Origin: Catajapyx aquilonaris
Lineage: Eukaryota
Assembly: GCA_000934665.2 (NCBI GenBank)
Contig: JYFJ02001795.1
Location: 1 to 64,000, forward strand
Reading direction: 5' to 3'
DNA: 64,000 bases
In this document: piece after piece, positions 2,246-62,558 of the stretch
Layout of the letters: each line of letters begins with the position of its first letter
Numbering within the stretch: the stretch's first letter is position 1
The notes under the pieces: model-generated
Told to the model about the DNA's origin: nothing
What the model saw: the letters and a program-made list of their open reading frames with translations, nothing else
The model's database searches: none
Translations under genes and position numbers: made by a program

Positions 2246-2974
2246 GCTAACACCCTTCTTATCCAAACTAGTGTTATCCTTCTTGTCATGGGATAAAACC
2301 AGCTCTATTTACATATATATCCATCTTCCAAATTCATATCCAGCTTCATCCATTTTTTTCTGCTCCCTAGAGTGTAGACATTGTTAGCAAACTTCTGCCA
2401 TATGTCAAGCCTGCTGAAGAAATGGCCTTCCTTGCAAATGTCTCGGGTTTAATCAAGTGGAACGACCCCATTCGTCATCCTGTTTCATAATGGAGGTGGA
2501 AATAGTCGTTGGGGCTATTAAAAACGTTCTCGAATAAGACGGGTTTTTTTTTGAAGACGACGTTATTTTGCTTGGAGTACTTGCTGAGCAGAGGAAGGAA
2601 TGAATTACGGAAACTGGATGACCCTCTCGATTTGGGAATGGCTTCTTCCTTCTCCTTTCTTGGTCCCTGCCATCGACTGATAACGAAAGACAAACCGGGG
2701 GAGTCTGTCGGACCCGCCAAGCTTTCCTCTTTCTTCCCTTGAAACAAAAGGATGTCTCAGGAGCAGAAGAAAAGAGAGCTGAGGGGAAGAAGAAGAAGAA
2801 AAATGGATGGGGCCTTGAAAGGAGCCCTATAGGAACATCTTTTTATCCAAATGAAGCCATTAAAGTGGAGTGGCCTCATTACCTTTTCAGGCAGAAAATG
2901 TTTCTTCTGCGGAGTGATCTCTGTTCTGTTGGAGGAAGGATGGATGGGGATGGGTGGAATAGAATTGAAATTTT

Positions 2975-3975
2975 TTGAACGTCGATTGTTGTTCGGATAT
3001 AAGAAAAGAAATTGTATTGAGGACTCCGACACATTACCAGATCGATGTATCGAACAATAATCAATAAGTCGAGTATTCAACCAGGAATCGATATATCGAA
3101 TGCTCGTACAATCGTTGATGAATACTTGAACTATTGTCGATACATCGAATATTCGAACAATAGGAGAGATATCGAACATTCCAATGATAAATGATACATC
3201 TATCGCCTATTCAACATACAGTCGAGGAATTAACCAATCGAACTACCATCGATATACGCTATATACGCACTACCGTTCATATATACTCGAACCATCGTCG
3301 ATATATCGAACATCCGAACTAGCCTCAATATATTATCGTATGTTCAACATGCAGTCGATATATTGAATATTCGAAATCGGTATATCTAATTTTGTACGTA
3401 CCATCTTCGATAATAATAAACATATCGAATTCTCGTACAATCGTTAATATAGACTCGAACTACTGTCATCGATAAACCCGAATATTCGATCAATAGACAT
3501 ACAGGTATCCAGCATTCTAATTATGAGAGATACATCTATTCAACATGCAGTCGATTAATATAATATTCAACCTGCAATCGGCATATCTACTTGTAATATT
3601 CGTAGTATCGTCGATCATATCGTATACTGGTAGTATCGTCGATAATATCGTATACTGGTAGTATCGTCGATAATATGGTATACTGGTAGTATCATCGACA
3701 ATATCGTATATTGGTAGTATCGTCGATAATATCGTATACTGGTAGTATCGTCGATAACGATCAAATACTCGTACTAGCGTCGATAACTATATCGAATACT
3801 CGTACTGGCGTCGATAATTATATCGAATACTCGTACTAGCGTCGATAACATACTACAGTATCAAATGATCGTAGCATCGTCGGTATATCAAATAGACCCT
3901 ACTCGTTCCATTGTCGATATATCGAAGATTACTATCATATTTTATTAATATCGAGCATGCTTAAGATTCTTAATA
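2975..3975. repeat. ATCGAT/ATCGA-rich degenerate repeat block containing a 28-bp tandem (TAGTATCGTCGATAATATCGTATACTGG, about 3600-3760)
   Basis: Dense ATCGA/TCGAT words; 28-bp period between 3631 and 3659. Confidence 0.85.
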
Positions 3976-4730
3976 TCAAACCTGTGAGCCATATTTTCTC
4001 AATAAATTCTCGTCCCATGCATTGTTGAGACTGGAGGATATACCCCCTCGCCTTTCCTTCCTGATTACTCCATTTTGAAATTAGTCTCCATACCTGTTTT
4101 CGTACGGGGTAAGGAGATTTGGCTGCACTTTAGCGCATTTGGGGTTTTCATTCCGGAGCAGGCAAGGCAGGGTTGGAACATGCTCGGATTTATTATCCGG
4201 AGAGTATTCCTCCCCCCCCCCTCTCCTCCGCCCCCCACTTTGTTTTCCTCCACATTTCCCTTATTAAAGGCGACGGTTCATGCATATTCAGGCCTCTGGA
4301 GCCTTGGGGGCCTCTGGATCGATCCCCCTCTTTCCCTGGGAACTTATTGTTTTGGACCTGGGGTGTGACGATATTTGGGGGAAGGGGGGGGGGGGGTGCA
4401 AGACCTAAACTTTTGGGAGGAAGTTGGCACCATCTTTCCTTTTGATTGGACCACCATTTCTCGATTCGTGTGGTGTTATTCGATGATTCACCCTGTACGT
4501 TTGCTGGAATTGAACTTTCAGATATTTGTTTTGGAATGGTAAGTTCTTATACTAGTACTAATGGTAGGCTATGTACGCATATGTCTGTCTGCTTGTTTGT
4601 AGAGGGTTATAGGTCAAAGGTTTCGCACAATTAAATAACACTGACTCTTAATAAGTTATCACCCCAATTCAGCTCTGACAATGGTATCAGTGTGATGAGA
4701 GAGACTGTGCGCCACCTATACGACGTGGTG

Positions 4731-5105
4731 GTACCAGATAGCATATACTATACATAAGAGGCGCAAACTTCTGTCGGCGCCGTTGATGTTCGCGTCTCTC
4801 TGTTTGGGGCCGTTGCCAAGGCTAGCGGCCATTTTGAAGTGTGGGCAACGCCTACGAGGTATAAATAAGGTACAGGCAAAAATATGGTCCGCCATCTTTG
4901 ATGGTTTTGGCGTCCATGGCAACTACACAGCAAGAATACGCGCGAATCACAGATGGCGGACCCTATTTTTGCCTGTACCCTATTTATCCCTCGTTGGCGT
5001 TGCCCACACTTCAAAATGGCCGCCATCCTTGGCAACGTCCCAAACAGAGAGACTCGGAAATCGAATGTTTGCGCCTCTTATGTAGTATATGCTCCCTGGT
5101 GGTAC
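4731..5105. mobile_element. Long palindromic (foldback) MITE
   Basis: Arms about 4731-4902 and 4945-5105 are inverted repeats, e.g. GCATATACTATACATAAGAGGCGCAAAC vs GTTTGCGCCTCTTATGTAGTATATGC, and GGCCATTTTGAAGTGTGGGCAACGCC vs GGCGTTGCCCACACTTCAAAATGGCC. Confidence 0.85.
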
Positions 5106-9090: not shown

Positions 9091-10369
9091 CACCACCTAT
9101 CAGGAATGTCCTAATCCAACAAACTAGTACATGTTAATTAAGCTTAAATAACACTTTAAACTTAGCATTCAACCAATCTAGTTCCAGGCTAAAGCCAATA
9201 ATCCGTGTTCCCAGACCGAAACAGTTCAAAAAAAAACTGATGACGATAGCATCGCTAATCAATAGTAATGGATAAAGGTATGGTTTGAGGTAGAACTCTT
9301 TTTGTGGGGGCCCGACACTGATTGGATGAGCCACGTGATCATGATTAAAAGTCGGTTTCGATAATATATTGATACAGCACTTTGTCAGAGGCTTTTTGGG
9401 GGGTGGCCTCTCTTCTGGCCGCGGCTGGGGCCCTTCCAATTATAACGGCGATAAAGGATTGTTATCGGTAATGGGAACGGCGATTACCATTTGCCATGTC
9501 CATTGCGGAGAGGGGGAGGGGGGAAGGTGGTTTAAATGCAGAAAATGGGCATATTTGGTCGGATTTTAGGACCAGGTAATTAGCACCGGTTGTAGAGCGC
9601 CATTGTGGAGTTTCTGCGTCCCAAAATATGTTGTGTCCGAAACTTTTCTTGCCATGTAGTACCATACCACTCGAATATATGACGCTACATCACACTCATA
9701 CCCCAGCCACATAATGCCCTTATCAGCTGTACCCTAAGGGAGGGCAGTTGTCGCTTCGGCGCTGGTGTAGTGGCCAAATATCCTGGCGGGCGATTTTTTT
9801 AAGTAAAAATCCAGTATTATAATATCAATGCGAACAAATGGAATGAAAGACATGTCACGATAAGGCCTAAAAAAATAGATCAGTCTACAAATGAATCGTC
9901 ACCTACACAATGCATGGCTCAATTAATAGCTATAGTAGGGTGGAGCTATTTCAAGTCCAATTATAGGTTATATCTCAATCCAACTGTTATTTCGTGAGAG
10001 GCCAAAACAGTTTCCATTGTTTCAACTCTTGCTCCTCGTCACGTTCGAAAGAGTTTTTTTTCCACACCCATGGAATAATAGGTGACATTTTGTGGTGTGT
10101 CAATTTATTGTCATGAACTTCAAAAGCTTTGTTTATAGTGACAGTGGGATAGCACGCGTCGTTGTTGTTATTGTTATTATGGGTCCAGTGCTCTCTCTTT
10201 TTTTTCATTCCTGGATTATAGATTTTAAGAGGCGTGATTGATGGTGGCGCCACTTATTTGAAACTGCAACACTGTCAGTCCAAAATCCATTGTAATGATC
10301 AAAAGTGTGTATGAAATATTGGATAAATTTATGACGTTGTAAGTTGACAGGCTGCTGGTTAATTATTAT

Positions 10370-13551: not shown

Positions 13552-13818
13552 ATATTAGCAAATCATCTGTGGTCCCCGCAACCGGTCCTAAACGTAACTG
13601 ACCTAACGTAACCTATCCTAACATATTCCTACCTATCCTAACCTATCCTAACCTACCCTAACCTATCCTAACCTATCCTAACCTACCCTAACCTATCCTA
13701 ACCTATCCTAACCTATCCTAACCCAACCTAACCTTCCTCCTTGTGGATACAACCTTATCTTCAGCGGATACAGAAACCTATGGACCGGTTGCGGAGACCA
13801 CCTACGATTTACTTATAT
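13552..13818. mobile_element. TIR element carrying an internal (CCTAA/CCTAT)n array
   Basis: TIRs ATTAGCAAATCATCTGTGGTCCCCGCAACCGGTCC / GGACCGGTTGCGGAGACCACCTACGATTTACTTAT enclose a 10-bp unit ACCTATCCTA array (13600-13733). Confidence 0.8.
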
Positions 13819-14499
13819 GTCAACAGGGTACTACATGGACAAACAAACAACCAAACAAAGAAATAAACCGTTTTCTTCGTTTATAGTAATAGAGATCCTC
13901 CAACTACTGTATCCAGGCATTTCAGATGTCTCTTCTCTCTTGTCTCAAGCCTCTTCGCCATCATCCTCTTGCAGGTACTTGATCGGGTTGGGTTGCATAC
14001 CCCTGGTGAGCCATCTCGAGTCGCATCATGCAACAGCCAAACATCGATCCCGATCCAGTTCTGGTGGTTTGGGGGGGGGGTGGAAGGAAAAGAAACGGCG
14101 CCGAATATTTATTGGCGGAGATTGCAGATCGGGAAATGAGTTTCCTTTGGTTTTCTGTCCTCCAGAGCACGTGCAAGACCTAAGATGGCTTTTCCACTTG
14201 GCAGTCCGATTGCCTTCTTTCGTTCTTTTTCTTCTTTTTTTATGGTTACACGGATGAAGGAACCCTCGGCGTGTTTCACCACCAAAACATCGGAATATAA
14301 ATTCAGACCATGAATTCAACGGTGATGAATTATTTGCACTTTTTCCTAGATAATTTGTAGTTTATCTACGAGACATCAATATAGGGCTAGACGAGGTGTC
14401 TAGGGTGAGTACTGATGTCGTACAATTTGTCTCAGTAAGTTTTGGCCACTAACTTTATCCTGGTCTTGAAGAAAGCCTTCGCACAGGTCCCACGGTACA

Positions 14500-14755
14500 T
14501 AGGTGTGTGTATGTGTGAGGGGGTTAGGTTAGGTTAGGTTAGGTTAGGTTAGGTTACCTAACACGGTAAACAGGTATATGTATGTGTGAGGGGGTTAGGT
14601 TAGGTTAGGTTAGGTTAGGTTACCTAACACGGTAAACAGGTATATGTATGTGTGAAGGGGGTTAGGTTTGGTTAGGTTACCTAACACAGTAAAGAGGTGT
14701 CTGTATGTGTGAAGGGGGTTAGGTTGGGTTAAGTAACCTAACCTAACCTAACCCA
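14500..14755 (+). repeat. Interstitial (TTAGG)n arrays embedded in a 60-72-bp minisatellite (4 units)
   Basis: Unit GTATGTGTGAGGGG(GTTAG)nGTTACCTAACACGGTAAACAGG; ends with an inverted CCTAA run. TTAGG is the ancestral arthropod telomeric repeat. Confidence 0.85.
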
Positions 14756-16009
14756 CCATGTACATTTAATGAATCAAACCCAGTAGTAGATTACATTAAA
14801 TACATTTCAAAAGTATATATTGTTGAAACTGTCCATTTGAAACGTTGCTTTGCGTTAGTCTTTGTCCTAACAATGTGTTACCTCATCCGTAATGTCATTT
14901 TGGTGTCGTTCCGGATGGCTGGAAGGGAAGAGGCCTCTTCACCCCCCTTCCAAGCCCTTCCCTCTTCTCCCTAATTAAAAAATATGGGCTGGCGCTGAGT
15001 CCCAAAATCCGGAAGATTATCCGGTGCGGCGAAGAACAGGCGCCGCTGTCCGATCCGGTGACAGCCACTCAGGGAAAAACGCTTCGCGGGCTTCCAACTT
15101 GCTTAGCGGGAACCAACTTTTTGGGCAAAGGGAAGGGATGCTGGAGGTGGAGGAGGGAGAAGAGGTGTCTTTTTAGAGTAAGATTCAATTTGCGAAATGG
15201 GGTCGGGGGTGTTGAGTAGGTGCGACTGAGAGTCTGTCAGGATTAGACAGGTTTTTTTTTGGCCGAGTAGAATGGAAGTGCCATCTACATGGTGGATATG
15301 GTACTACGATTCATTCAAACAAATCAAGTGGCTAAATTCAGTTTGGAACACTCTGTATAAAGGAGCTGATTGTTGAGACTAAGGAATGAAACAGTGGGAG
15401 CAAAATGATTTTAGAATAATCCATTGTGCTTATGTAGCTACCAAAACCATAGAGAAACCCAAGTTCCCATAAACAGAGACTCTGATACCATCAACACAGA
15501 TTCGCCAACATTGGCATGTTTATTTACTTTTCGCAGGATTTCATCCCCTGGGAAAGTAGGATCCAGAGTTAGACTAACATGCCTATTATGCAATATAGTA
15601 ACATTTGTTAAAGTAGTGGCTCATGATAAACGACAGATTAATATTATTGTTATTTGCTATCTGATCATAACTTTTAAACTTTATCAGATGATCGATAGTT
15701 GAGCGATACTATCCTTAATTATACATTCCACGATAGTCCTCTGTCCAATTTCGTTACACAGAAGATCGATCCAGCTCTTTTTTGACCCAATACCAGACGA
15801 CGAACAGAATTCTTTTGAGCAATAACGCGCAATTAGTGTCCCTCGAAATCAATAAATGTCAACAAAGTATTCGGCCATCCAATGGCTGAATCTCGATCTC
15901 TGCCGCATACTATTAATCGGATGACCTGTCTATATTTTAAGTTATTTCAGCTAACTATAAGTAAATGTAACAGAGGTAGCCTTGAATAGATGTTACAAAG
16001 GGTTACCCA

Positions 16010-16335: not shown

Positions 16336-16984
16336 TTGAAACTTCTAATACAGGTTATACTAAGAGATCGTTTTTAACCCTCTATTAGATAATACTTTGT
16401 TATAGAAACCTCTCTTAAAAGTTACCTGGCTAAGAGCATAATTCCAATTCCATCCAACTTGCAAGGATTTGTCCCACGTTGGGCGCCATTTGTGCCGTTC
16501 CGCTTTTGCCTGGACACGACGCTATAAAATATGGAATAGTCGTAGACACACGACACCAGGAGGGGGAGACAATGTCCTGGACTTTTCCCCTCCCTGCCTC
16601 TCCCTCAGCTTCTGTCCTGCTTCCTCGGACATAAAAGCCTCTGGAGGCAGGGGGTCCAGATGCCTCCGAATAATCCTCTGGAATAAGGTATAACCGGAGA
16701 TCTACAACACCTGACGCCACCAATCGCGGTTCCGGCTCGTGGCTTGTCTCTTCTCTTTCCAGCAAGTTGCTGGAGAGAGAGGAGATGGGAGGAAGGGGGA
16801 AGGAAATGGCTGGTTTCCGAGGCGGTGTCAATGGCGAAGGGGGATTTCAGGGGCTGGAGATGAAATTAGCCCAACTGCGTTTTGTCATAGCGTAGAAAGC
16901 CCTAGGATAATAAGCAATAAGTTTGTAAGCAGGGAAAATTACTTGTGAGGAGAAAAATGGCAGCCATTTTGAATGTGGCTATCA

Positions 16985-20850: not shown

Positions 20851-20857
20851 CCACTAT

Positions 20858-20971
20858 GGGTGGAATTTTCGTCCTACTGATAATTATAGTTACTGCTAAC
20901 TTAGCAGTACCGTTTCCAACACTGGTACTGCTAAGTTAGCAGTAACTATCAGTGGGACGAAAATTCCACCC
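20858..20971. mobile_element. Short palindromic MITE (GGGTGGAATTTTCGTCC...GGACGAAAATTCCACCC), possibly PIF/Harbinger-like
   Basis: Near-perfect inverted arms; flanked by TAT on both sides; second copy at 35267-35370. Confidence 0.8.
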
Positions 20972-21087
20972 TATAGAATAAATGCTTTTACCACTACTAA
21001 CTACTAACCTATTAATAACTGCTACTTCCACTTCTTACTACTAACCTACTAATAATGTCTTCCACTACTAATTTCTATTCTTCTACT

Positions 21088-21453
21088 TGTGGGGAGGCGG
21101 AGTGGTGCTGCGGTAACGTATGCGCCCACGGATGTTAAGGTCCCGGGTTCGATCCCAGCCTGGGGACACCCCCTTCATCTCGTGCAGAGTTCAGGGTCAC
21201 CTCTGGCTTCGTCTCGGGTGGTATTTCCAACAGACTAAACCACCCGGGGGAGTTCACTAAAAATGGCCACGTTTAAGACATTGCACTGCACCTTGCACAT
21301 CCCCTCCTGTCACCCTGCCCGTGGGCCCGGGCGCTACGTCATCAGGTCCAATGTATACTGTATATGAGTAATAATAAAGGTCCGTGCCATATAACTCGTA
21401 AAGAGTTCGTGCACTACCCGGATTATTATTATTATTATATTATTATTATATTA
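21088..21453 (+). mobile_element. tRNA-derived SINE with (ATT)n tail and 12-bp TSD
   Basis: A-box-like TGGTGCTGCGG and B-box GGTTCGATCCC; (ATT)n tail at 21422-21453; perfect TSD TATTCTTCTACT at 21076-21087 and 21454-21465. Confidence 0.9.
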
Positions 21454-22449
21454 TATTCTTCTACTACCAGTACTAGTTTCTGCTAATCAACCTATACCAA
21501 CCATTGTTATATCTGTATCAGGGCTCGTCTGATAGGGTAGCTTGATTTATTAATATGGCGCCATCGGCACCAAATCTCTCCCTAATTTTGATAACCAATT
21601 CCCGCAACTAATACTTCAGTCACTGCCATTCATTGCACCCTGTACATGAACCGGAGCGATATCTGCCAAATATCGGTCCAATATTTCGCAAATAACGGTC
21701 ATCCTCTATTGCGGCCATATTTGCAGAACCCACAAATTAGGGCCAGGTCCTAATATTAATTAATAATTTTGCACTCTAAACCCAGGCCGTCCTCTAATCT
21801 CGGGGTTATAACAATCCCTGTCCAATTGCTGGTCGGGACATGTCCCAAAATTTGAGAGGGTAGGGGGGTTTGGGGACACAAATCTTTCCCAGTAAAACCG
21901 GGTCCCGGACACCACCGCTTGACAGAATGGTCCATCAGAGTCGGTCCGAATGAGAAGTTTATTTCCACTAAACCTCCGAGTGGTGGAGCTGCAGTCGTTT
22001 TAGGAGGGTTCTGGATGAAGATATGGCGGTTTTTGCGGGTTTCCTTCATGTGGAATCCGCTGCAAGAACTTCACATTAATCATGCTATATTTTGGGGCGA
22101 AAAGGGAAGGTGTGTTTGGACGGCTGTGAACTAACAAAAAAAAGTGGGTTAATTATTTTGGGGGCGGGGTATGTAAAGAGCGTTGAAATTAAATTAATCG
22201 TGGCCAGAAATGGCGGGTGATAATAATGCGATGGTCGTGTAGCGAGGGTGGGAATTAATTATTTAAAAATTAATCATCAAACTGTGGCCTAGGGGTGTGC
22301 TTCTACTGGAGTGCGGGAAAGTGATTGGCTGTAAAAACAACGAACAATAAGCAACAAAACGTAGCTGTTATTTAAAATGTTTATTGGAAGTGTTTTTGAT
22401 ATAGGCCTAATTCCGTTACTATGCTAGTGCTTGGTTCTAATTTGTTAAC

Positions 22450-22624
22450 TATAACCACTTTCAGAATGGGACGTGACGTATGATGATGTTTCATAAAGCA
22501 CCAATCAGAGGCATGATGCTCTCTCTGCCGCCAATGAGCTTCAATCATCCCATCTGATCGTGCCTCTGATTGGTGCTCTATGAAACGTCATTATACGTCA
22601 CGTCCCTTTCTGAAAGTGGTTATA
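22450..22624. mobile_element. Palindromic MITE
   Basis: TATAACCACTTTCAGAATGGGACGTGACGTATGATGA...TCATTATACGTCACGTCCCTTTCTGAAAGTGGTTATA; arms about 70 bp. Confidence 0.85.
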
Positions 22625-22869
22625 CTATACACCGTAATAGGTGTTCTGACGCTATATTCTTATAAAGAACTGTGAACATAAGCAGTTTTTCATGAGCTAT
22701 TTTTGAAACTGACAATAACGGTTTTTAGACGTTATTATGTTATGACCAAACAAGATCTGTTCTTAGACGCTATTTTGTTACAGCTCCTAGTAGGAACTTT
22801 TTTTCTTAGAAGTTGCATGCTTATAACTTAGAAGACAAGTTTCACAAGCTATTTGGTATCCCTGTCAAG

Positions 22870-23150: not shown

Positions 23151-24364
23151 ACAAAGGTGTATTCTTAGCATTGTGAACAAAACCTGTTTTATAAGCAATT
23201 TTTGTGTAACAGCTAACAATAACTATTCTTCTTAGACCAAGTCTTAGACGTTGTTATAACTGCCAACAAGAATTATTCTTAGGCGCTATTGTGTCAATAA
23301 CTGTTAATGAAACTGTTATTGTGTCAATAACAGTTACTGTCAACGTGTGGAACCACGCAAGCTGGCAATACCTACAATGTAATGTAAAATGTCTCTTACT
23401 AACATTTAATCTAGTCGAGTAACTGCTATTACACGTTATCCAATATATGTTATTACACATTNACCCCCCCCCCCCCCCCAAAGGACACACCTCCCCATTA
23501 ATTTAGCCTTCCAAATTTCACTCGACTTATTCCCGCTACAATAGAGTCGCATCTTCATTATTTCCACTTTGCTTCCAACATTAATTCCAACTCCTAAACG
23601 AAAAGAAAAAGGGTGGATAAAAGACCACAGGTTTTTTCCCCACTGGGTTTTGCAGCTAGACCCCCGATGGCTGTATTCCAAGGTAAATAATTATTATGCG
23701 GTAATGCAAAAAGGAAAACGCTCGAGTTCCCAAGCAGCAATTAAGCAAGTCAGGAAGCAATTGCGGGAGTTTGTCTGATACTTGCCCAGGCGGCAGCACT
23801 GAGCCACTAGGGGGAAAAGGTGAGTCTATTTTTTTTTCTAACAATGGATTCCCCCCTTGGTGTCTCTCTTGTGTTTAAGTCGCGTCCCTTTCATCTCGAC
23901 TTGTCTGCTATGCGTCGTTGACTCGACTAATTGCCGACTTTGGCAAATCCCGGGGACAACTTTGCCGTTTGTTTGCCAGTACAGCGGCGTAACGGAAGAA
24001 AAGTGGAGGATAGGACGAATGAGGGTTGAGAGGAGGGAGGATAGGGAAGAAACTTTGTTCGGTAATTGGCTGCAGCGATGGATGTATCCGGTTACATTGG
24101 TTCAAAAATGGTGAGGGGGACGAAGAGGGATGAAAAGGTCTGTTGTGGTTTTCGTTTGAAACGTTTTGGTCCGATGAAACGACTCTAGTTAGTACAGCAT
24201 GAACTGGTGCAAATTATGCTTGATAATAATTACTAGAGACAAATTTTAGTCACACAGAATATGTGTGCAATAATATTCTTTATTTTATCAAATACATATT
24301 TTGTCCAAAACTGTATGTCCGACAACATAATTATTATAACGGGACTTGGACAAAATAGAGCATA

Positions 24365-24669
24365 CTAGCTGCGGCACCCGGCGTTGCCCGGGAAGAAATG
24401 AATGAAGGGAAAACACCTGCCAGTACCCCCGTGAACAGTCTGTCTTTCTGTGTGTCCGGCCACCAATGCCATCTGTGGTCCTGCTACTCCCCCTTCAACC
24501 TCTCCCGCCTGTATAACGGCAACCGCCATTTGCCTGCCATCTGTAGTCAACCCCCAACACCTCCATCCTCTCCCGGCCTGGGGGTGGAGCACAGATGGCA
24601 GGCAAATGGTTGGCAGGCGGACAGACAGACAGAGAGACAGACACTCAAAAACGGCTTTATTTATATAGA
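24365..24669 (-). mobile_element. Non-autonomous Helitron
   Basis: On the minus strand it starts TCTATATAAATAAA and ends with the GC hairpin CCCGGGCAACGCCGGG followed by ...CAGCTAG. It sits between host A and T with no TSD, and has an internal (CTGT)n microsatellite. Confidence 0.85.
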
Positions 24670-25975: not shown

Positions 25976-26759
25976 CTACGCCGCCATGTTTGGTCCAGAT
26001 TAATTCAACTCCCTCTGGACTGAACATGGCGAGTTATACATTGCTGTTTGTTGCCTTTAATAGGCTATTACTAGCCTACTTTTAGTTCATAGCTATTGGT
26101 AGAAAGTTCACTCCTAATTTCACGCTACGAGCCAACTTCCACTAGCAACTTTCTAGCAACCTTTGCTCGTACATTTCAATGAACAGCGTTGCAATTGCAC
26201 CTCACCTTCTCCCCCTAGTTTTTCGGGGTCGAGTGTGAGTGACATTCTCGAAGCCGCATCTCGGTCGTCCATGATAACGAATTTGGTAGGGGAAGGCGGG
26301 GGAGGAGAGGGATAGGCAGGTGGGGAGGGGGAAGAGGGAATGGGAAAGTTGTTGGAATGGAATGACGACGGAGATGGCTTCGATTTTGGGCCCGAATTCT
26401 GCCAGAATTACATTAGAATTGAATTTGCTGCTCGGCTGGGATGGGGTTAAAGTGGGGGAGGGAGGGGATAGGGAGGGAAAAGGGGATGGAGTGATGTTGA
26501 GGGTTAGGAGAAGTGGAAACTGAGAGGTGAGTCACAATATGGGCGGGAAAACGATTTGGCTGGGAAAAGGGCGTGTATTCAAACCGGAGATGGCAACCAC
26601 GCCCCTGCATGGTAACACTATGAGGGGAAAAGGGCGTATGCAACAATTGGGACTGCTCATATTATGATTATCCAACTGTTATTGTTGTTGCAAACGCCTT
26701 AATCTAGCAAAATGTGCTGGAAGTGATTTATTGGCGTATATACAACAACCCTTTTAGAG

Positions 26760-32325: not shown

Positions 32326-33054
32326 TTTTACCTCACAATCTGGCAACCCTGCCAATATTTACCTCACAATCTGGCAACCCTGCCAATATTTACCGCACAA
32401 TATGGCAACCCTGCAATTTTTTGCAACATTGCCATTTTTTGCAAAAAGGTATAACATTGTTACAGGGGGGAGTCTTTCCCTGGGCGGCGATAGCCTGGAT
32501 TTGCAATCACGCCATAATTTCCTTTTTTTGGGAGGGTCTGTGGGGGTCGGTGGGGGATGGAGGAGCGGGGAGAGAAGTAGTGTCGGTGCAGCTGGGGCGC
32601 TGGCATTAACCGGGCCGAGCTTCCGTGATAAGAGGCAGGGGCGCATCAGCAAATGGACCGCGAAATGGCGGAGGGGGAATAGCTCGTCCTACCCAACCCC
32701 CCCATCCCCTGCCTCCCAGCCAGACTGCAGATGCCGCCACAATACCCCCTCCCTCCCTCACACTTCTTCCCTTTTTTAGGGGGGGGGGGGAGGTGAAAGG
32801 GAAGAGCACCCGAGCAGAGCCATCTTCCGGTGGCGTCATTCCCATCTTGGAAAGCACGCCTGGGTGCCTGCCAAGTTGGGAGAAGACGGATTTATGCACA
32901 TCATCTTTAGCCAAAAAAAAGAAGAAAATTGAAAGATTTGTTGCTACAGGGTTAGGCTGGCTTAATCGGAGGATAGATCCGGGTTTGAATCTGGATTGTG
33001 AGTTATGCTAAGGTCAATTTGATTGGTAAATTATGATGTGTCGCTACGAAAGTG

Positions 33055-35266: not shown

Positions 35267-35370
35267 GGATGAAATTTTCGTCCCACTGCTACTTACTAAT
35301 TTAGCAGTAGTCGTCCGCAACACTGGTACTGCTAAGTTAGCAGTAACTAGCAGTGGGACGAAAATTCCAT
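35267..35370. mobile_element. Second copy of the 20858-20971 palindromic MITE
   Basis: Shares CAACACTGGTACTGCTAAGTTAGCAGTAACTA.CAGTGGGACGAAAATTCCA. Confidence 0.8.
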
Positions 35371-39985: not shown

Positions 39986-40572
39986 AACAAGATTGGAAAA
40001 TCTCGCGAGCGTGATTTGAGTACACTTTTAGACTTTTTTGAAGAAAAGTCTGTCTGTTTGTCTGTCTGTGGACAGGTATCAGACAGACAGAGCCGTGCTA
40101 TAAGACTTTTTCCGATTTTCGGGTTCCGGGTTCACTCTATCCGCCCCTTCCCCCTGGTTACTCCCTCCACCCTCCACCCCCTCCCCCAGACCGCCCATTC
40201 TCCCCAGACCGTCCCTTTTCCCCCTGACCTCCCAATCCCCCCACCGCCCCCTGCCCACGATCACTTTCCTCCCTTCTAGTCCCGTGACTGACGTTGATGA
40301 CAATAGCATTACACATGAAAAAGTCTACTCTAATCACACTAACGTGATTTGCCAATCTTGTTTCTGATTGCCAAGGAAATTTGACCTTTGATAGAGTGAA
40401 CCCGGAAACTCGGAAGTGGTCGGTCACAAGAAGTTGACCATAAAACCTAATTAGGGCCAGCTAAATCCGAAAACGAACACAGTTTGTTGCTACGTCTTGC
40501 AATTTAGGCCCGGATATCTGTCCACGGACAGACGGACAAACAAATGAGTCATATTTCGATGAGAAAAAGTCA
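39986..40572. mobile_element. Nested HINE pair: a + strand copy (about 40026-40362) inside a - strand copy (3' end 39986-40028, 5' part 40370-40572)
   Basis: 40026-40362 aligns to 31931-32325 and ends GAAAAAGTCTACTCTAATCACACTAACGTGATTTGCCAATCTTGTTT. 39986-40028 is the reverse complement of that 3' end. 40460-40572 is the reverse complement of the 5' part seen at 47343-47482. Confidence 0.7.
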
Positions 40573-41955: not shown

Positions 41956-42377
41956 TCGGAGGAGTCCAGTGATCGTGGATGATGGATGGGGACTGCTTTG
42001 AAGGTAACACTGGGAACAATGTGGAATAATGTGGAAACAAAGTTCCCCCAAAATGGAGCGGTCCAAATGAGATTGTCAGGGGTGGTTTATGGAGCTGGCC
42101 GCGCTCTGAAAACTGTTGATGGTTGCCAGGGGAGTGGAAGAAGATGCAACAAACAGTCATTGTCACTGTGGAGGATGAATTGTTGCGGTGAGATGTGGTC
42201 ACGTGATTCAAATGAGGCCACATTATTGGCTGACATTATAGTATCATTAACGATACTATTTGCCCCCAATGAGACCTCAAGCCTCTTGAAAGGGTATGAA
42301 ACAAACAATCAAACAAATAACGAACAATGTATTGTCAATTTTTAATTAACTGCTCATTATAATATGAATACTCATCG

Positions 42378-42745
42378 AAAAAGTCTTATAGAACGGCTTT
42401 GTCCGTCCGTCCGTCTGTGGACAGGTATCAGCCCCTAAATTATATGAGATAGCAACAAACTGGTTTCGGATTCGGATTCAGCACACTCTAAATTGGTTTT
42501 ATGATCAACTTCTGGTGACTGTTCATTTCGGTTTTCCGGGTTCACTCTATACCCCAAGGTCAAGTCAGCACGATTAGGATATATTGCGTTGCTTGGCAAC
42601 GGAAAATGAGACTGACAACATTCTGTCATTGTCCAATTAGAATCGTATCGTGTATCGGCCACAGATCAAACAATTTCAACGAAGTTGTCCAGCTCATTCC
42701 CCTTGTCCAATTAGAAAACGTTTACTCGAATCACACTCTCGTTAT
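42378..42745 (+). mobile_element. HINE-family copy
   Basis: GAAAAAGTCTTATAGAACGGCTTTGTCCGTCCGTCCGTCTGTGGACAGGTATCAG, then TTCCGGGTTCACTCTATA, and a decayed 3' end GAAAACGTTTACTCGAATCACAC. Confidence 0.65.
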
Positions 42746-45400: not shown

Positions 45401-47342
45401 CACATGGATTATTAATTATTAGTTATCAAAATCTTCACGAATTAATGACCAACTCATGGAGGTTTTAATAACTAATATGAACAGTTATTTTAGTATCACA
45501 TTCTACGTGCAAGTTAACAAAAATTTATCGTTTTAACTATTTTAGATATTAATAATTCATATGAAGTTATATTAGTATTGGTTTTATCATAAAATTTAGC
45601 AATTTATAGGGTAATGTAATTAATTAACAAATTAATTTTAGTTCAACCTTAAATAATACCAATACTAATACAACTGTAAATATTAGTTCAATTCGTGAAG
45701 ATGTCTATAACTAATATTAACAGTTATTTTAGTATAGGTTTTAATCTAAAATATGACAAAAATGTATTAGTTAATGTCATTAATTAACTTAATAAATTAT
45801 GTTAAATTTATTTTACTTTTAGTTATTTTACATTTTAATAACCAATTGACCTCATATTGAACTAATAAAAACTGATTACATTACCTAATAAATTTTTGTT
45901 AAATTTGATAAAATATTACTTTAATGTCAATTTAAATCGTGAATATTTTGATAAGTAATATGAACAGTTATGACTGTCAATTCTTTCTCGCTGGATGCAA
46001 ATGGCTATTAATACAGTATAAGTCGGCCAAAGGCATTCTTATTGACCCCTTCAATTAAATAGCCATGAAACTAACTCTGATGAATGGTTTCGCAAGCTTT
46101 TCAGACGGTTCACTGTCACATCGTGCAACCATCGTACGTGACGCATAAAACACGTCAAGTTTGATTCCAGTTGACGTCAAAGATATGCGACATTCCCAGA
46201 AACATGGTCGCAGGAAATAACCGCTTCTTTTTTTTGTAGTTATTCATCAGTGCAGCTATTTTCTGCTGTAATTTCTCACTCATAATCGCTTATCTTCTCA
46301 AAACTACATCTGTCGCCAAAATTGTGATCAAATCTCGCGTGTCACACGACACATTGTATAGGGGGTGGTCGAAATTCCATTTCGAGTGGGGGCTATGCTC
46401 GGTTCAGGGCCGCAGTGCGAATAATTTTGATCACATTATTAGAAGAGCAATCAAGGGAGCAATAAACAGTAGTAAGTTAACTAGTAGTAAGGTTAGGTTA
46501 TTCGCCACTTGAGGCAGCAGTGTAGCCAACCCCATTTCTAACTAATTGAGCCATATTTGGCAACAATGTTCAGGAATTCGCCATATGCGTGACTAAAGAG
46601 TTATTTGAGGTCATATGATAACCGTACTTGACATTATTGCAGCGAATTTTTGTCGCCAAAAAACTGCACTCATTTTTCCTATGAAATATGATGGGTGCGT
46701 CGTATAGATGCGCTTTTTTACCCCCTCCTCCCATCCCCGCCACCCTCCACCCAACGCAATGGCCCACATACATAACTGCTCGGGGCACGCAAATCCCCAT
46801 CATAATAACGCCAAAAACATGGCCAATAATAACCGTGTGGCCGTGCCAAAATAATGTGAATAGCACTCTCCACCAATTGCAGCTCGTGTTTCTATTCAAT
46901 CATCGGATTGGCCAATCATCATCTGACATTGTTTCCTAATTTCTCTCATTATTGACCCTATCCATTGTTTAAAATGCAGTATTTTTTAGTGTGTTCAGAC
47001 GGCTGTCACAAACTGCTGATTTTTTTTTCATGTCAGCTAGGGTGCGTTTGTGTCGCTGTCAGTCACAGATCTCCCAGGAAAACTGGCTGGAAAATGGCAT
47101 TTTGTAAGGGGGGTAGACGGACTAGGTCTTTTTCTCGTGAGGTGTCAATCTTCTTTCCAATATTCCCTTGGGCCTAGGCGCCATTATTGCCAGACAGAGG
47201 GTAGGAGGAAGAAAGTTGGGTCACGTTGTCGCGGTTTTTATGACGAGACATGGCGTCCAAATCTAGTCAGAAGTGTGCTGATAGGAGACTCCCAGGCGCC
47301 TGGACTGTCAGGATTGGACAAAAGGACATACCTATTCTCTGC

Positions 47343-47625
47343 AATTTTAGATTTTTCTCGTCAAAAAAACGTCTTATAGATCCACTCTGTCCGTCTGTCC
47401 GTCTGTCCGTCCGTGGACAGATATCAGAACCTAAACTGCAAGAGGTAGCGACAAACGGTTTTCGGATTCGGATTCAGCTAAATTGATATCATGCTCAACT
47501 ACCGGTGATATTTTTACACGAGCAAATATATCGATTTATTAAAATATTATCTATATCAATCACGAATATTGAGTAACATTTTAGCAGAAATATTGGCAAA
47601 TCACTCGAGCGTGATTCGATGTAAA
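47343..47625. mobile_element. HINE fragments: + strand 5' part (47343-47482) and - strand 3' end (about 47585-47620)
   Basis: TTTTAGATTTTTCTCG...GTCTTATAG, (GTCY)n and GTGGACAGATATCAG; then TTGGCAAATCACTCGAGCGTGATT. Confidence 0.65.
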
Positions 47626-51244: not shown

Positions 51245-51572
51245 AGAACCGTCATGGCATAAGGAACGAACCAATCATGGTTCAAGGAACGAACCAATCA
51301 TGGCACAAGGAACGAACCAATCATGACATGAGGAACGAACCAATCATGACATGAGGAACGAACCAATCATGACATAAGGGACGAACCAATCATGACACAA
51401 GGAACGAACCAATCATGACATGAGGAACGAACCAATCATGACACAAGGAACGAACCGATCATGACCCAAGGAACGAACCAATCATGACATGAGGAACGAT
51501 CCGATCATATCACAAAGAACGAACCGATCATGACATGAGGAACGAACTAATCATGACACAAGGAACGAACCG
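51245..51572 (+). repeat. 23-bp minisatellite AAGGAACGAACCAATCATGACAC (about 14 copies)
   Basis: Period 51261 to 51284. Confidence 0.9.
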
Positions 51573-52414
51573 TTACTTTGAACACACTGTAACCGCATGA
51601 TACCTAACTGCATATGGCTGTATACAGTAGAATAAATTTTCCCGGTTTGTGTCCATGCAAAGTAGGCTCGTGTGAACCCACCTCACCCCAACTGATCATA
51701 TTCAAAGCAACAACCGCCTTATGCAAATCCAGTCTGCAAATCCTCCAGACTTGATATCAAGATGACTGAGAGATATAACCCTCCAGCCTTCCCCACCATC
51801 CTGCTCCGCCATTTTGGATGGAACCACTGCTTGAGAACACGACCGTTTGGCTTGCCTCCCTAATTGAGCTCCAATGAAGCGTCGTAGCCCGAATGCTAAT
51901 CCCGGTTCCAGCCTAGGACCAGGCCTTATCTCTCAACCTCGTCTTGCGCCGCTCAAAACCGCCCAGGAAGAGACACCCCTAATAGTTCAGGGAGGGGAGG
52001 AGAACTAGGATTTCTAGGATGGGATTGGGTACAAAATGGGAGGGCTGAAATGAGCAGAGCGGTTCAGATAAACATAACGGGGCGTGAGGAGGTTGTTAGC
52101 AGCCGCGATTAATTCTGGGGAATGGAACAGGGTTCAACTGAATTTTGGAAGTAGGGGAGTTCTAGGCTGGACAAGTGAAATGGGGGGAGCGGATCAGGAT
52201 CAAATGGGGTGCACGCAAATGAGAGGAACAGATGCTGAGAGAGGAACGGAGGCGAAACTTGTCTTCATCCAATCAGAAGAGCCCCGAATTTTTCCGGGTC
52301 TCTGGTTGGCACACTAGTACAGGCAACAGAATGAGCCACCTGGCAAGTACAGCAATCAGAACGCGCTTCACGTTCGTTCCGTTCCACACTTCTAACTTTA
52401 TGTTGGGAGTACAA

Positions 52415-52930
52415 TAGTTCATGACGTGCATAATCGGTTAGCTCCTTGTTGATTTGTACGTTCTCTATGCCATAATCGGTCAGTACATTATGTCACAATT
52501 GGTCCTTTCCTCGTGTTATGATCGACCCGTTCCTTATGTAACGACACAAAAACAATTAACGCGAAGAACGAACAAATCATGACGTAAAACCGAACCAATC
52601 ATCACAAACTAATCGTATAAGGAACCCGTTCCTTGTGTTACGATTAGTTCGTTCATTGTGCCATGATCGGTCGGTTCCTTACGTCATGATCGGTCCGTTG
52701 CTTGTGTTACGATTAGCTCGTTCTTTGTGTCAGAATAGGTCTGTTGTGTCATGATTGGTCCGTTCCTTGTCATAATCGGGCCGTTCCTTATATTACGATT
52801 AGTTCGTTCCTTGTGCCATGATTGGTCCGTTCCTTACATTTATGATCGGTACTTTCCTTATGTTACGATAATTTGATGTGTCATGATCGGTCTGTTACTT
52901 GTGTCATGAATGGTTCGTTCCTTGTGTTAT
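52415..52930 (-). repeat. Degenerate, mostly inverted array of the same 23-bp minisatellite
   Basis: GTGTCATGATTGGTCCGTTCCTT-type units; a short forward stretch at 52540-52625. Confidence 0.85.
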
Positions 52931-53754
52931 AATTGCTATGATACGTAAAGTACTGTACTAGTCCTATTTAACCCCATGGGTCTTTCGTTGACGCTCCGTT
53001 TGTGCTGCGGTCGTTCCACGCATCTTATCAACCGTTGTGGTTTGAACCTCTGTTTCATTCCGCTGTCCAATTCTTGCTTCTCTCCCATGCGACCAGTGTT
53101 AACCCTTGACATTTCCAAACTGAAAGAAAAAGGGTTTGGACACTCCATTTCTCCTGATAAATCGTGGCAACCGGGCCCTTTTGACTGGCCACTTTAGAAT
53201 TTCCCTCCTCCTGCCTAGTTTCTAAACATAAAAGGCCGTCTCCTGCTATTGGTTACCCTGGCAGTCCCAAATATAGCTTTGTGAATGGTATTCGACCCGG
53301 GGTGAATACCTCGCTCCACCCCCCCTCCCCTCCAAGGCTCAATAATTTATGTGGAAATCGCAGAGTACAACAAAAAAAAAAATTCGCCAGAGAGAGAAGC
53401 TGGAGTTGCAAGGTCTGCAAAAACTTTGACCTGTTCCGTTCCCTGTTTTATTCATACCCTCTTCTACTGCAAAATCGGGGGAGGGTTTGTTGCACATGTA
53501 ATCTGACCCTCGCATTCTACAGCACAGGGGCTCCAACTGAATAGACACTGCTTAACTATTGATGGGCCTCGCTTCCAATCCAGGGGAGAATGGATGACCT
53601 GCGTTTCCTATCACCTTTCCGGTTACGTTACACGGGACTGTTTACGTAATCAGGAATGGATGACGTCAAATGTACTAGGGGATTGGTCAGTTCGAGTCCA
53701 AAATGGCTGTTCGTTTTGTATTGTGGTCATTTCTGCATTTGGCTTGATCGTTGT

Positions 53755-58517: not shown

Positions 58518-60260
58518 CCTCCCCACAGTTGTCACGCCCCAGTAGTTAAATCCGGAACGAAATATGTTGGCGACAAGCAATACGATGATTGAAAACATTT
58601 GGAGATGAATTTTACTGCCCTCTATACCAAGCGAATAGAGCTCAATCTCTCTTCAAAGTCCCCGGAATTTATGATCCGGGGAGGCATGGGGCAAGGGGCA
58701 GAATCCGGTTCTATTTCTAGTCGCTTTTTAGTGTCTGGCTTAATTAGATGCGAGTTTTTTTTTTTTTGACTGGGACCCCCGCTCCTCTGAGGGCCCCCTT
58801 TTTCTGTGTATCTACCCGGATTCCGAGCCTCCCCGGATTTTCCTTTTGCTGGGCTTATCTCCGGGCCAAGGGTTACACGGAATAGGTTTTGAATAAAACG
58901 CTCGGCCGCTCAATATTAAGGAGGAATTTATAGGATGATCCGGGTATGGGGGGGGACTCCGGTGCATTCTTCCGGAGACCTGATGCGTGCAATGCGGACC
59001 GCTCCCTGCGTGACATATGGCCCCGGTTGCCTTTGGCGCCCCGGAATCGTAAATTGAAGCCACAGGGAGAGTGTGTCTGATTGGCTCAAGAGAGGGAGGT
59101 ATAGTCATCTGCACCGGGTTCCTATATTCAAGCCTTGCCGCGCACATTTCCGGAGGAGTATTGTTCCGGGAGGCTGCGAATGGCCCCCCTGGATTGAATC
59201 GGGGGAGGTTCTTTTTTTTATATTGTTGGCAGGGAGAGCGGGTAATGCATACTTATGACTATGGCTCAGATATGCTCCATTTCGAACCGGTTATGACTTT
59301 GGGGCGTTCTGATTTGTTGAAAGAAATGATTTTTTTTTGTGTGTATAAGTTACATATGTATAAATGATTCGCCATATATGTGTGAGATACAGTACTACGT
59401 TTACAGTCCGGACTTGGGAAATTCCTGGCACCCACTTTTTTCAACCAATCCGGCTCCTGATTAGACCCCCGTCTTGCCTATCCGACACTGCCCATTGGTC
59501 ATTAGCCCTCCCCTCCTTTTCCTCCCCCGTCCTCCTCCCACCAAAACCAACCCAACCAACCTAAATCTCCGCCAAGCAAGCAGTGTCCAACCGCAGCTTT
59601 ATCACCAAGCGCAGGCGATATTAAATTAAAGTCTCCCGTAGTTGTTGTCCGAAGAGCATATATCTTGGACAGCGATACGGGTTATTCTTCATCCGGAAAT
59701 TGGACAGCTTGGGGACTACGCCATCTTATGGGGGGGAGGGGGAAAGTCAGCGGACACAACAAAGCTACAACAATATTAAAAATTGAAAAGTAGTATGGAA
59801 AAGTTTGACTGTAAAAGATGGATCTGACCAAGCGTGACTGTGCGTGACATGGGGGGTGAGGGGTGGGGTTAAAAAAAATTAACCTCAAAATCACAGAAGC
59901 GTACTTGTCTCACCTGGTTAGCGTAATTTTCAACTCATGTTAACGAGAGAAAAAACGGCAAGCGGGCGTGAAATCGAGCGGAAAGCTTGGTTATAGAACC
60001 AGCTGGAATTACTGCGTCTGACTGGAAGGCCTCGGAATCGCTTCGAATGTGAACATGTGCTCGTAACACTGCCTCACACACACATACACGTCATTAATAA
60101 CTAGGGACCGCTGAAAAGTATCCGCTACATACACTGCTTTGAAATCAGCTTGTTTAGAAATCGCTGAAAATTATTACCCTTTTCAGTTAGTATAGTACTA
60201 GCGAACCTACTGTTGAAATATTGGCAAAACTAAGTAGCCACCCAGGACAATCCAAGTACA

Positions 60261-60743
60261 TACAGTGTAACCTGGCTATGTTGGACATTGACTGGACAAG
60301 TTGACGGTTCCAAAGCGTCCAACATTGCCAGGTTGACAGTAGCATGGATTTTCGAAGTTAAAGGTAACTTCGGATATAGTAGACAATAGTCCCACTAAAG
60401 ATGATCCCTGACGTTATTTTAACGACTCTGACGTCAATTTAACGATTTTTAACGTCAATTTAACGACTTTTAACGTCAATTTTACTTCAAGATGTGTAAC
60501 GGCTATTGTACCATTAAGACAGTTTGACGTGAAATTGACGTAAAAGTAGTTCAAATAACGTCCGAGATCATCTGGCGTGTGACTCTGGTCTACTATATCC
60601 GAAGTGGCCTTTAACTCCGAAAATACATGCTAGAGTTGACGGTTACAAAACGTCCAACATAGGCAAGTTGACGGTTCCAAAATGTCCAACATAGGGAGCT
60701 GTCCAACGTATAAGGGTGTCCAACTTCACATGTTTTAACTCTA
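60261..60743. mobile_element. pogo/Tigger-like MITE remnant (TACAGTGTAACCT..., GTCCAAC repeats) hosting a nested MITE
   Basis: AGTTGACGGTTCCAAA.TGTCCAACAT units continue on both sides of the nested insert. Confidence 0.55.
60340..60632. mobile_element. Nested MITE with about 100-bp imperfect TIRs
   Basis: TAGCATGGATTTTCGAAGTTAAAGGTAACTTCGGATATAGTAGAC / GTCTACTATATCCGAAGTGGCCTTTAACTCCGAAAATACATGCTA. Confidence 0.85.
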
Positions 60744-61164
60744 CAAATCTAAATCGTGTTCAATATTTTACACGTAGATCTGGTAACATCTACCTGTCGA
60801 TAGTATACAGTATGTGCTGACACACGTCCACTCTATGTGGCGACTAATTGGTACTATCAGAGTGATACTGTATTGTGTATGTTGGACCCTGCGGACAGTC
60901 GCATGGCCGACCAACCATCCATCTATTTAATTATTTCGGGTTCAGAGCCATGCAATAGTGGGTTATTCATGGCCTAAGACCTCTAGGCGCTGAATTCAAC
61001 GCCGGGCACTGACAGGTGACTTCACTGATTGGTTTATTTCCAGGAAGGTGCGATGACCTGATATGCGCCAATGATTATCCTAGAAGTTGGAGAAGTGAGA
61101 ATATAATTGAAGTATTAAAAGTAATTGTAATTAAATGTTCAATTTTAATTAATGTTTACAATGT

Positions 61165-61423
61165 ACCGAAGCAGGTCGGTGTAGGGGATAAGGAGCCGGC
61201 CTGCTAATCGGGAGGTCCTGGGTTCGAATCCCGGGACCGGCGACCCTGACCATGGTTTTCTGTGGTTTTCCATGGTCCCCTCCAGGACAATTCCGGGGTC
61301 GTTTCCGTAATAGGCCACAGCCGCTTCCATCCTTCCCTATCCCTGGTCCCATCCAATGGTGGTAATCCACCCCCCTAAGGGAGCCAAAGGCTCTAGCACG
61401 GGGTATATGATTTTTTTTTAAAA
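61165..61423 (+). mobile_element. tRNA-derived SINE with a Talua/Lm1-like body
   Basis: tRNA-like head with B-box GGTTCGAATCCC. The body CCTGACCATGGTTTTCTGTGGTTTTCC...CCTCCAGG...TAGGCCACAGCCGCTTCC resembles arthropod Talua/Lm1-type SINEs (from recall, not a search). Degenerate TSD AATGTTTACAATGT (61151) / AATGTTTATCATGT (61424). Confidence 0.85.
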
Positions 61424-62558
61424 AATGTTTATCATGTGAACAAATTGCATATTATTTTAATTTATAAGGGTTCATTCAATTTTATAATTCTACTTTAAAA
61501 TTAATTAATTCTTTATAACGATTTAACCGTCAGAATGTATTGAAATAAATTTTAATATTTAAACACCTATTAAATTTTTTAATTTGCACTAAATTATCCC
61601 CCTTCTTTAACTGTGCAGCCCTGCACCATTCGGAAATCCTGATTGGTCCACAACCTGGCGACATTAGTAGAGCACACGCTGGGCGCCATTTGTAGTCCAT
61701 CTCACTTATTCCGTCCTTTAAGGGCCCGTTATGAACATTCTGCTCCACACGTTAAGAGCACTTATTAGGGGCTCTTAAAGACACCTTTTCCTCTCACAAT
61801 TTTTTTCCTTTACACTGAAAAGAAATTTACTCTCCTCTTAAAGGTTACACAAGAAACCCTATATACGTACGGTACTGGAGCTGAAGGGGACGCAAATGGC
61901 CACTTGACAGACAAGATGTCGCATGCTTTTTTAAAAAAGCTTAGAGAGGACTTGTGGGTATACTGAATCAGTCTGAGTAAAAAAAACTCGAAATTTTTTT
62001 GAGAAATTAAACCGAAGCATATTTGGCGACATCATTGAGACAAATCTCCTCGAAATTCCAAATTTTTGGATTTTATTCTAACCCTATTATTGCGAAAAAA
62101 ATTGCCAAAAAATGGTGCGCATTTATCATATCCCTCCTTCTACGTCGTTACGATTTTTATTCCGTCCCATACATCACTTTTTTTTCTCTCTCTTTTTCTC
62201 CTCCACCCCCTACTCTACCCACCTACCCCTCCAGCTCTGAATATGCCCGTTTGATCTCGCACGAAAACTCTGCGCCAGACCTTGAGATATTGCTTCTCTA
62301 GACGTCTTGGCAGGAATAGAGCATTACGGCTATGTTTTTGCACGAGTTTTTTTTTTTTTGTTCGTGCCAGGCCTCTAGGGTGGGATGAAGGATAGAGGTA
62401 AAGCTAGATCAGCTCTATATGCGCGAAATGCAAAAAAAAAACACTATGAAAAAATTGATAATTTTTAGATATGGTTTTAGGTTGATAGGAGAATGTTGCA
62501 AAAATAAGTTACTTTTGCAACATTTACTATTGATTACTATTGATATAAAACTTATTAT

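Follow-up and report, generated by a model that had tools for sequence, protein, structure and literature searches.

The DNA analysed here is a 64-kb stretch of Catajapyx aquilonaris (contig JYFJ02001795.1, positions 1 to 64,000; hereafter the window), in which short GC-rich islands appear to carry C-rich tracts on their left and G-rich tracts on their right. Is this order real, and if so, what kind of unit or process does it reflect? The original prediction had read it as a recurrent pyrimidine-to-purine skew inversion that would make each island a symmetric functional or mutational unit centred on its midpoint. Our analysis showed that the C-left/G-right polarity is genuine and pervasive but weak, and that it holds on average only. 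The rule belongs to the edges of the islands: wherever a flank is G-rich on a given strand, it sits 3' of the island on that strand.

The polarity was measured with a threshold-free test, in which the difference in (G-C) between the R bases to the right and the R bases to the left of each position was correlated with the surrounding GC content, with circular shifts as the null. The correlation ranged from 0.12 to 0.255 across 12 radius pairs, and none of 500 circular shifts matched it in any of them. At R=400, r was 0.239 (null standard deviation 0.056, null maximum 0.185; 0 of 5000 circular shifts as high), and it was positive in all four quarters of the window (0.21, 0.37, 0.16, and 0.20) and in all 15 4-kb blocks, with a jackknife standard error of 0.036. 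Steps from C to G and from G to C are equal in number by necessity (57 each); the former lie at a mean GC of 0.458 and the latter at 0.402, which is the window average. The correlation persisted when the strongest tracts (0.15–0.26), the tandem arrays (0.28), or both (0.19) were masked, with z values of 2.5–4.5, and it was 0.23 with 15 inverted repeats masked. Removal of the ten loci on which the original prediction was built, each with ±500 bp, left r at 0.209, a value that none of 2000 circular shifts reached, and the 37 held-out islands comprised 15 with C-rich left and G-rich right flanks (C>G), 5 of the reverse order (G>C), and 17 with the same sign on both sides. At the level of single bases, C…G pairs outnumber G…C pairs by 1–2% at separations of 50–500 bp. 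The predicted inversion is thus borne out as an average over islands, and it fails in about half of them individually.

The tracts that drew attention to the pattern are themselves genuine. All ten of the left and right tract pairs originally listed have the claimed composition, the left members being 0.34–1.00 C and 0–0.20 G, and the right members 0.32–0.86 G and 0–0.13 C. A caller that requires at least 11 of one base (C or G) and at most 1 of the other in 20-nt windows found 82 tracts in the window, 38 of C and 44 of G. Dinucleotide shuffles yielded 44.0±6.0 within 300-bp blocks, 26.6±4.8 within 1-kb blocks, and 15.3±3.6 when the window was shuffled as a whole, so that the C/G-rich tracts occur at about twice the chance level of the 300-bp-block shuffles. 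Canonical G-quadruplex (G4) motifs, defined as four runs of G3+ separated by N1-7, numbered 20 (6 on the + strand and 14 on the - strand), compared with 3.5, 1.2, and 0.35 in the respective shuffles. Relative to the nearest island midpoint, 10 of the 14 - strand motifs lie to the left and 3 of the 6 + strand motifs to the right. The claim that several G tracts have G4-type runs applies to a minority of the listed tracts, with a canonical motif in only two of ten G tracts and three of ten C tracts (5 of 20). Around island midpoints, CCCC words are found 106 times in the left 200 bp and 51 times in the right 200 bp; for GGGG words, the counts are 92 and 113.

The order of the tracts, taken by itself, gave a trend in the predicted direction. 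Adjacent pairs were C>G rather than G>C in 9 versus 5 cases at distances of up to 300 bp, 14 versus 9 at up to 600 bp, and 16 versus 14 at up to 1000 bp; none of the six parameter sets was significant (p of at least 0.29), and the block-bootstrap confidence intervals on tract-pair polarity included 0. A comparison of island halves gave a mixed outcome. Among neighbouring tracts 120–190 bp apart, 9 of 11 pairs were of opposite type (6 C>G and 3 G>C), numbers too small to interpret; six C>G pairs are separated by 128–176 bp.

The extent of the skew was examined in a metaplot centred on 46 island midpoints. The islands have a median length of 291 bp and a median spacing of 1224 bp. The metaplot was not flat: the skew lay between -0.125 and -0.11 from -400 to -200, and between +0.11 and +0.12 from +100 to +300, positions at which the bootstrap intervals exclude 0. 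It was about 0 in the core and flat past ±500 bp; with the approach of the following island, it turned negative once more between +500 and +700. Purine skew tracked GC content (r=0.20). The A/T skew step did not (r=0.03–0.06, p=0.09–0.59 over the parameter sets; r=0.044, z=0.6 in the masking test). Since A/T skew alone takes no part, this is a G/C effect and not a general pyrimidine-to-purine effect, and the predicted inversion holds for C versus G but not for A versus T.

This short reach bears on the possibility that the islands are bidirectional replication origins, with the inversion marking where leading and lagging strands change over. In its sign, the change from C to G agrees with bacterial origins, and such a role was proposed for human CpG islands (PMC2817419); that skew inversions mark origins or bidirectionally transcribed elements, as originally argued, is in print for those islands (PMC2817419, PMC3787257). 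In the window, by contrast, the asymmetry has faded by ±500 bp and changes sign short of the following island, far from the extent of a replicon, and the islands recur every ~1.2 kb, a spacing that makes an origin reading implausible. The G/C and A/T skews do not switch together, there being no A/T component, and the flanks of single islands are mostly skewed on one side, as described below. Replication origins are unlikely here, and we consider them a highly improbable cause of the inversion.

Comparison of the two flanks of each island revealed how the average arises. Among 48 islands with ±400-bp flanks, 22 were C>G, 5 were G>C, and 21 had the same sign on both sides, so that islands of the opposite polarity are fewer than the conforming ones; neither this count nor the shape of the metaplot refutes the original prediction. 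The left flank was C-rich in 32 of the 48 and the right flank G-rich in 33. From these margins 22.0 C>G islands are expected, exactly as many as observed, and Spearman's rho between flanks was ~0, although ~48 islands give low power for a modest coupling. Flanks with |G-C| of at least 20 per 400 bp were conforming in 34 cases and contrary in 14; both flanks were strong in 8 islands (6.0 expected) and one in 18. At a threshold of at least 30 per 400 bp, 24 were conforming and 4 contrary, with both flanks strong in 2 islands (2.9 expected) and one in 20. The ratio of C>G to G>C islands varied with the island definition, being 22:5, 17:3, and 25:6 at GC of at least 0.45–0.47, and 20:11, 14:7, 14:8, and 7:8 at GC of at least 0.50–0.53, where it was not significant.

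The same-sign islands, the independence of the flank signs, and the one-sidedness of the strong flanks lend no support to the notion of a symmetric unit centred on its midpoint. Because the skew is mostly one-sided in any given island, the symmetric-looking inversion is largely a superposition of two orientations. The pattern is indeed the same on both strands, as had been pointed out, but automatically so: a C-left/G-right arrangement is its own reverse complement, and strand sameness therefore does not speak for bidirectional function. The same picture arises from a polar unit that has a single G-rich 3' flank and lies in either orientation.

Two explanations are directly confronted by the independence of the flanks. 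Each island might be one short polar transcription unit whose coding strand has a C bias at its 5' end and a G bias at its 3' end, the arrangement of unicellular fungi. These units would account for the strand sameness without bidirectionality and would agree with the six C>G pairs at 128–176 bp. They predict, however, that both flanks of an island are skewed, whereas strong flanks are mostly one-sided and their counts match independence; nor were open reading frames or RNA families found in the window to represent them. We regard this explanation as improbable. Alternatively, the islands might be recombination (double-strand-break) hotspots, where GC-biased gene conversion would produce the GC core and asymmetric heteroduplex repair of the resected sides, a step that we infer ourselves, would produce the C-left and G-right flanks. 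Conversion tracts have a scale similar to the 150–400 bp seen here, and the islands are unique GC patches with no common motif, set in AT-rich, minisatellite-rich DNA. Recombination and gene conversion have also been proposed as the origin of human CpG islands, which likewise have bidirectional asymmetries (PMC2817419). Against hotspots, the expected A/T asymmetry is absent, and a process centred on a break should couple the two flanks; we think this origin unlikely.

The units that conform to the C-left/G-right order, whether wholly or weakly, are the following; none has an assigned strand.

2640..2962: CT-rich 2642-2740 with GA/G-rich 2781-2803 and 2928-2962; the example is weak, with no skew in the left flank over ±400 bp.
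4203..4403: C tract 4203-4241 and, 128 bp away, G tract 4369-4403 with a G4 motif; both flanks conform.
13721..14094: C tract 13721-13741 and G tract 14057-14094 around island 13959-14176, flanked by telomere-like arrays of the same polarity.
14933..15225: C tract 14933-14974 (G4 motif on the - strand), 154-bp core, and G tract 15128-15225, in a single-copy depth bin.
16581..16814: C tract 16581-16607, 162-bp core, and G tract 16769-16814, the G tract being the right arm of a local 19-bp hairpin.
23453..24134: C16 run 23464-23479 and, 534 bp away, G-rich tract 24017-24134.
26195..26503: a short C tract (26195-26219) and then G tracts 26281-26348 and 26437-26503; G-rich on both sides over ±400 bp.
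46713..47220: C tract 46713-46760 and GA tract 47195-47220, split into two islands by the island caller.
51775..52010: C tract, 176-bp core, and G tract within island 51710-52382, which is flanked by inverted 23-bp-repeat arrays.
59503..59874: C tract 59503-59557, 166-bp core, and G tracts 59723-59750 and 59844-59874.
62190..62398: CT/C tract 62190-62238, 140-bp core, and G tract 62378-62398.

Counter-examples and a one-sided island are given below, with the strand where one is assigned. The exception originally flagged at 32450-33010 is among them and is confirmed by its tract order.

9502..9710: G tract then C tract, 156 bp apart.
21087..21316, + strand: G on the left and C on the right; the island is a high-copy element resembling a short interspersed nuclear element (SINE).
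32526..32807: G tract, C tract, and G tract in this order.
40132..40273: one-sided island, C-rich throughout, with three - strand G4 motifs, within a segment duplicated from 32042-32330.
61174..61343: G tract followed 131 bp later by a C tract; over ±400 bp the left and right flanks are both contrary.

Both N's of the window (5741 and 23462) adjoin a long G/C homopolymer, in the forms T8-N-G11 and N-A-C16, which suggests base-calling or assembly uncertainty at these positions.

The setting of the islands was then characterized. The window has 40.3% GC, an observed-to-expected CpG ratio of 0.90, and over-represented CC (1.18) and GG (1.27). Over the whole window the CpG ratio drops as GC rises, from 1.3–1.5 below 33% GC to 0.67–0.78 above 45% GC. 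The islands are accordingly not enriched in CpG (0.67–0.78 in windows of at least 0.45 GC versus 1.03–1.52 below 0.40 GC), and this lower ratio in GC-rich DNA rules out CpG islands. AT-rich minisatellites are packed with TCGA/ATCG words (TCGA 321 versus 249 expected).

Coding sequence was likewise rejected. None of the 81 stop-to-stop open reading frames of at least 90 aa in the window matched Pfam, three translated frames resembled random sequence, other stop-codon sets gave no long convincing frames, and no 3-base periodicity was found outside tandem arrays. No gene was detected beside the islands by these screens, which would miss genes with very short exons. A transfer RNA (tRNA) search of the window found none, and no Rfam family reached the gathering score; at E values up to 1, nearly all matches were to microRNA-precursor (hairpin-type) models at palindromes, all below the gathering score. 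No motif common to the island cores rose above controls, and oriented poly(A)-signal, TATA, and splice-like words around the islands showed nothing notable.

Contigs assembled from sequencing runs totalled ~254–257 Mb per run, and word depth over the window had a baseline of ~20–36, with a few segments at 10^4–10^5. These totals and depths, the high-copy segments, and (TTAGG)n arrays, TTAGG being the arthropod telomere unit, suggest gene-poor nuclear DNA of a mid-sized eukaryotic genome. The window is rich in minisatellites: merged Tandem Repeats Finder rows gave 54 arrays covering 15.6% of the sequence, and near-perfect short palindromes are frequent. An organelle origin (a giant algal plastome) was dropped, as the islands are unique rather than dispersed repeats and the contigs reach ~254–257 Mb with SINE-like high-copy elements.

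The frequent palindromes raise the possibility that the tracts are transposon ends (terminal inverted repeats) or hairpin arms. Many palindromes and foldback-like structures are present, and when four units were folded as RNA by minimum free energy, pairing between the C and G tracts was seen in all four (z of -0.4, -2.1, -3.1, and -2.4). As these folds show, any C tract can pair with any G tract. Over 14 C>G pairs, the complementarity of a C tract to its own G tract was 16.8, versus 17.5 across pairs (permutation p=0.74). Left C tracts are thus no more complementary to their own partners than to others, and are therefore neither the termini of transposons nor the arms of specific hairpins. 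Polarity among the 15 clear inverted repeats is mixed too, with 4 C>G, 6 G>C, and 5 flat cases, and the correlation is preserved when they are masked, as given above. This explanation appears very improbable.

Inverted and palindromic structures are found in several parts of the window. Hairpin-type inverted repeats lie at 442-710, 4804-5044, 22443-22631, 28014-28148, 31950-32027, 60340-60632, and 63276-63493, with arms of ~40–115 nt, loops of 1–83 nt, and 84–96% complementarity where measured; depth is raised in the bins with the repeats 22443-22631 and 31950-32027. A 123-bp near-perfect palindrome at 20854-20976, resembling a miniature inverted-repeat transposable element (MITE), has complementary ends, and contigs break at 20971. 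The palindrome has sub-threshold microRNA-precursor matches, and a second copy (81–91% identical) lies 14 kb off at 35261-35369. Arrays of an inverted 23-bp repeat at 51252-51571 and 52626-52935 (~75–78% complementary) flank island 51710-52382, forming a foldback-like structure of ~1.7 kb.

Telomere-like arrays of opposite orientation, both of high depth, bracket island 13959-14176. The left array, 13601-13738, is (ACCTATCCTA)n, a CCTAA-like variant, and the right array, 14522-14742, consists of (TTAGG)6-7 inside a 57–66-bp higher-order repeat. Further C-strand-like arrays were seen at 33055-33446, and TCAGG-containing arrays at 1640-2246.

The islands do not form one repeat family. Within the window, a single strong pair (32042/40068) was found, and the other comparisons scored at most 34 bits versus 26.8–32.6 in shuffles. 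The C>G islands at ~14.9, 16.6, and 26.3 kb within 12–32 kb lie in baseline depth bins of ~20–50, in which only copies of at least 90% identity would show. In all, the window holds ~48 GC-rich patches, one per ~1.2 kb, which are probably for the most part single-copy. A dispersed duplication of ~300 bp at 31971-32329 and 40057-40363 (83–94% identical piecewise) contains C-rich tracts, and short related pieces occur at 42374-42550 and 47396-47479.

The SINE-like element at 21091-21340 has a summed contig depth of ~1.0–1.8 x 10^5 in its bin against the baseline of 20–36. Many contigs have loose ends at 21091/21092, and the element is present in a second sample (X5) too. The sequence GGTTCGATCCC within it fits the RNA polymerase III B-box consensus, and the element has no Rfam tRNA match. 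A GC-rich element at 24380-24670 has internal inverted repeats, many variant positions, and a summed contig depth of ~1–2 x 10^4 in its bin against the same baseline.

Such elements and arrays are relevant to the strongest rival, in which the polarity is a passive by-product of sequence turnover. The tracts and patches would be products of slippage and insertion, or old decayed polar insertions (a body with a G-rich 3' tail) in either orientation, and no present function would be implied. A signal that is pervasive but weak, positive in every one of the 15 blocks, is what turnover would leave, and independent, mostly one-sided flanks are as expected for single-tailed units. Slippage products abound in the window, as the 54 arrays attest, alongside SINE-like and MITE-like elements, and the island cores share no motif. 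Weighing on the other side, the islands are mutually unrelated apart from the one strong pair, with the rest no better than shuffles, and the C>G islands at ~14.9, 16.6, and 26.3 kb are in single-copy depth bins. The skew remains with tracts and arrays masked, and the sole identified retroposon-like island, 21087-21316, opposes the rule with G then C. We consider turnover doubtful.

We tentatively favour, as a putative explanation that could well be wrong, a short-range strand-asymmetric process tied to local transcription. It would account for the tendency, seen on either strand when read 5' to 3', of the 150–400 bp ahead of a patch to be C-rich and of the 150–400 bp behind it to be G-rich. 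The conspicuous C/CT and G/GA tracts, some of them G4-capable, would then represent this skew at its most extreme. Asymmetric mutation of the two strands close to transcription start sites has been described (PMC13712754), as have skew peaks at CpG-island boundaries (PMC4617957). How the skew is signed with respect to transcription depends on the lineage, mammals being reported as G-biased and plants, fungi, and invertebrates as C-biased (PMC3315797 and PMC555766).

Several observations count against a transcription-linked process. Given the difference in sign between lineages, the direction of any transcription is unreadable from the sequence. No genes were detected in the window with Pfam, Rfam, tRNA, or periodicity screens, one island per ~1.2 kb is far denser than usual promoters or enhancers, and the islands are not enriched in CpG. 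That each 4-kb block shows the signal fits a general feature of how sequences evolve better than it fits discrete elements. In mammals, transcription-linked skew is accompanied by an excess of T over A; this component is absent here (A/T step r=0.04, not significant).

A bolder version, which we regard as a long shot, is that the G/C tracts and flank skew could form a directional 'edge code' of non-coding DNA, spread over thousands of single-copy patches. The G-rich 3' flank, capable of forming G4 structures or R-loops, might then act as an orientation-dependent barrier or as a start or stop signal, serving dense short unannotated transcription units or nucleosome remodelling. In this it would parallel the oriented poly(dA:dT) tracts of yeast nucleosome-free regions, with G/C in place of A/T. 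A linear fragment capped by telomeres has the order 5'-C-rich…G-rich-3' too, and island 13959-14176 has (CCTAW)n on its left side and (TTAGG)n on its right.

Should the polarity extend to the whole genome, it would offer a cheap, sequence-only orientation marker for whatever process acts at the islands, be it initiation, termination, recombination, or nucleosome placement. The analysis also has corrective value, in that the eye-catching tract pairs prove to be the most visible part of a flank skew that is weak, diffuse, and confined to G and C.

Comparison with known systems revealed partial likenesses. Downstream of human CpG-island promoters and at gene 3' ends, co-oriented GC skew is linked to R-loops, as described by Ginno et al. 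(2013, PMC3787257). Of that class's G>C bias on the non-template strand past a transcription start site, the islands show the compositional half. The islands here resemble them in being a few hundred bp long, with the G-rich strand reading away, the skew at the boundary rather than in the core, and G-run or G4-capable tracts. They differ from those promoters in having no known genes or transcripts and no CpG enrichment, a skew of ~400 bp only, and one island per ~1.2 kb. Like the bidirectional asymmetries of human CpG islands in Polak and Arndt (2009, PMC2817419), which are discussed there in terms of replication, transcription, and gene conversion, the skew is antisymmetric and centred on GC-rich islands. 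Unlike it, the human asymmetry is one of substitution rates, extends up to 1 Mb, and resembles bacterial origins, whereas the one described here is compositional, reaches less than 500 bp, lacks an A/T component, and mostly affects one side of an island. Fungal coding strands are reported to have a C bias at their 5' end and a G bias at their 3' end (PMC3315797), and C exceeds G at transcription start sites of plants and fungi (PMC555766). The shared feature is a C-biased and then G-biased order along one strand; those skews, however, lie in and around protein-coding genes, while in the window coding sequence was not detected and the flanks are uncoupled. In the poly(dA:dT) barriers at yeast nucleosome-free regions, treated by de Boer and Hughes (2014, PMC4212969), the strand orientation of tracts is similarly ordered around a centre. 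Those tracts are of A/T and were demonstrated with nucleosome maps, whereas ours are of G/C and known from sequence, so that the likeness is only an analogy. Overall, the signal resembles the strand skews already known around promoters and CpG islands, of which it is a further instance in unannotated non-coding DNA.

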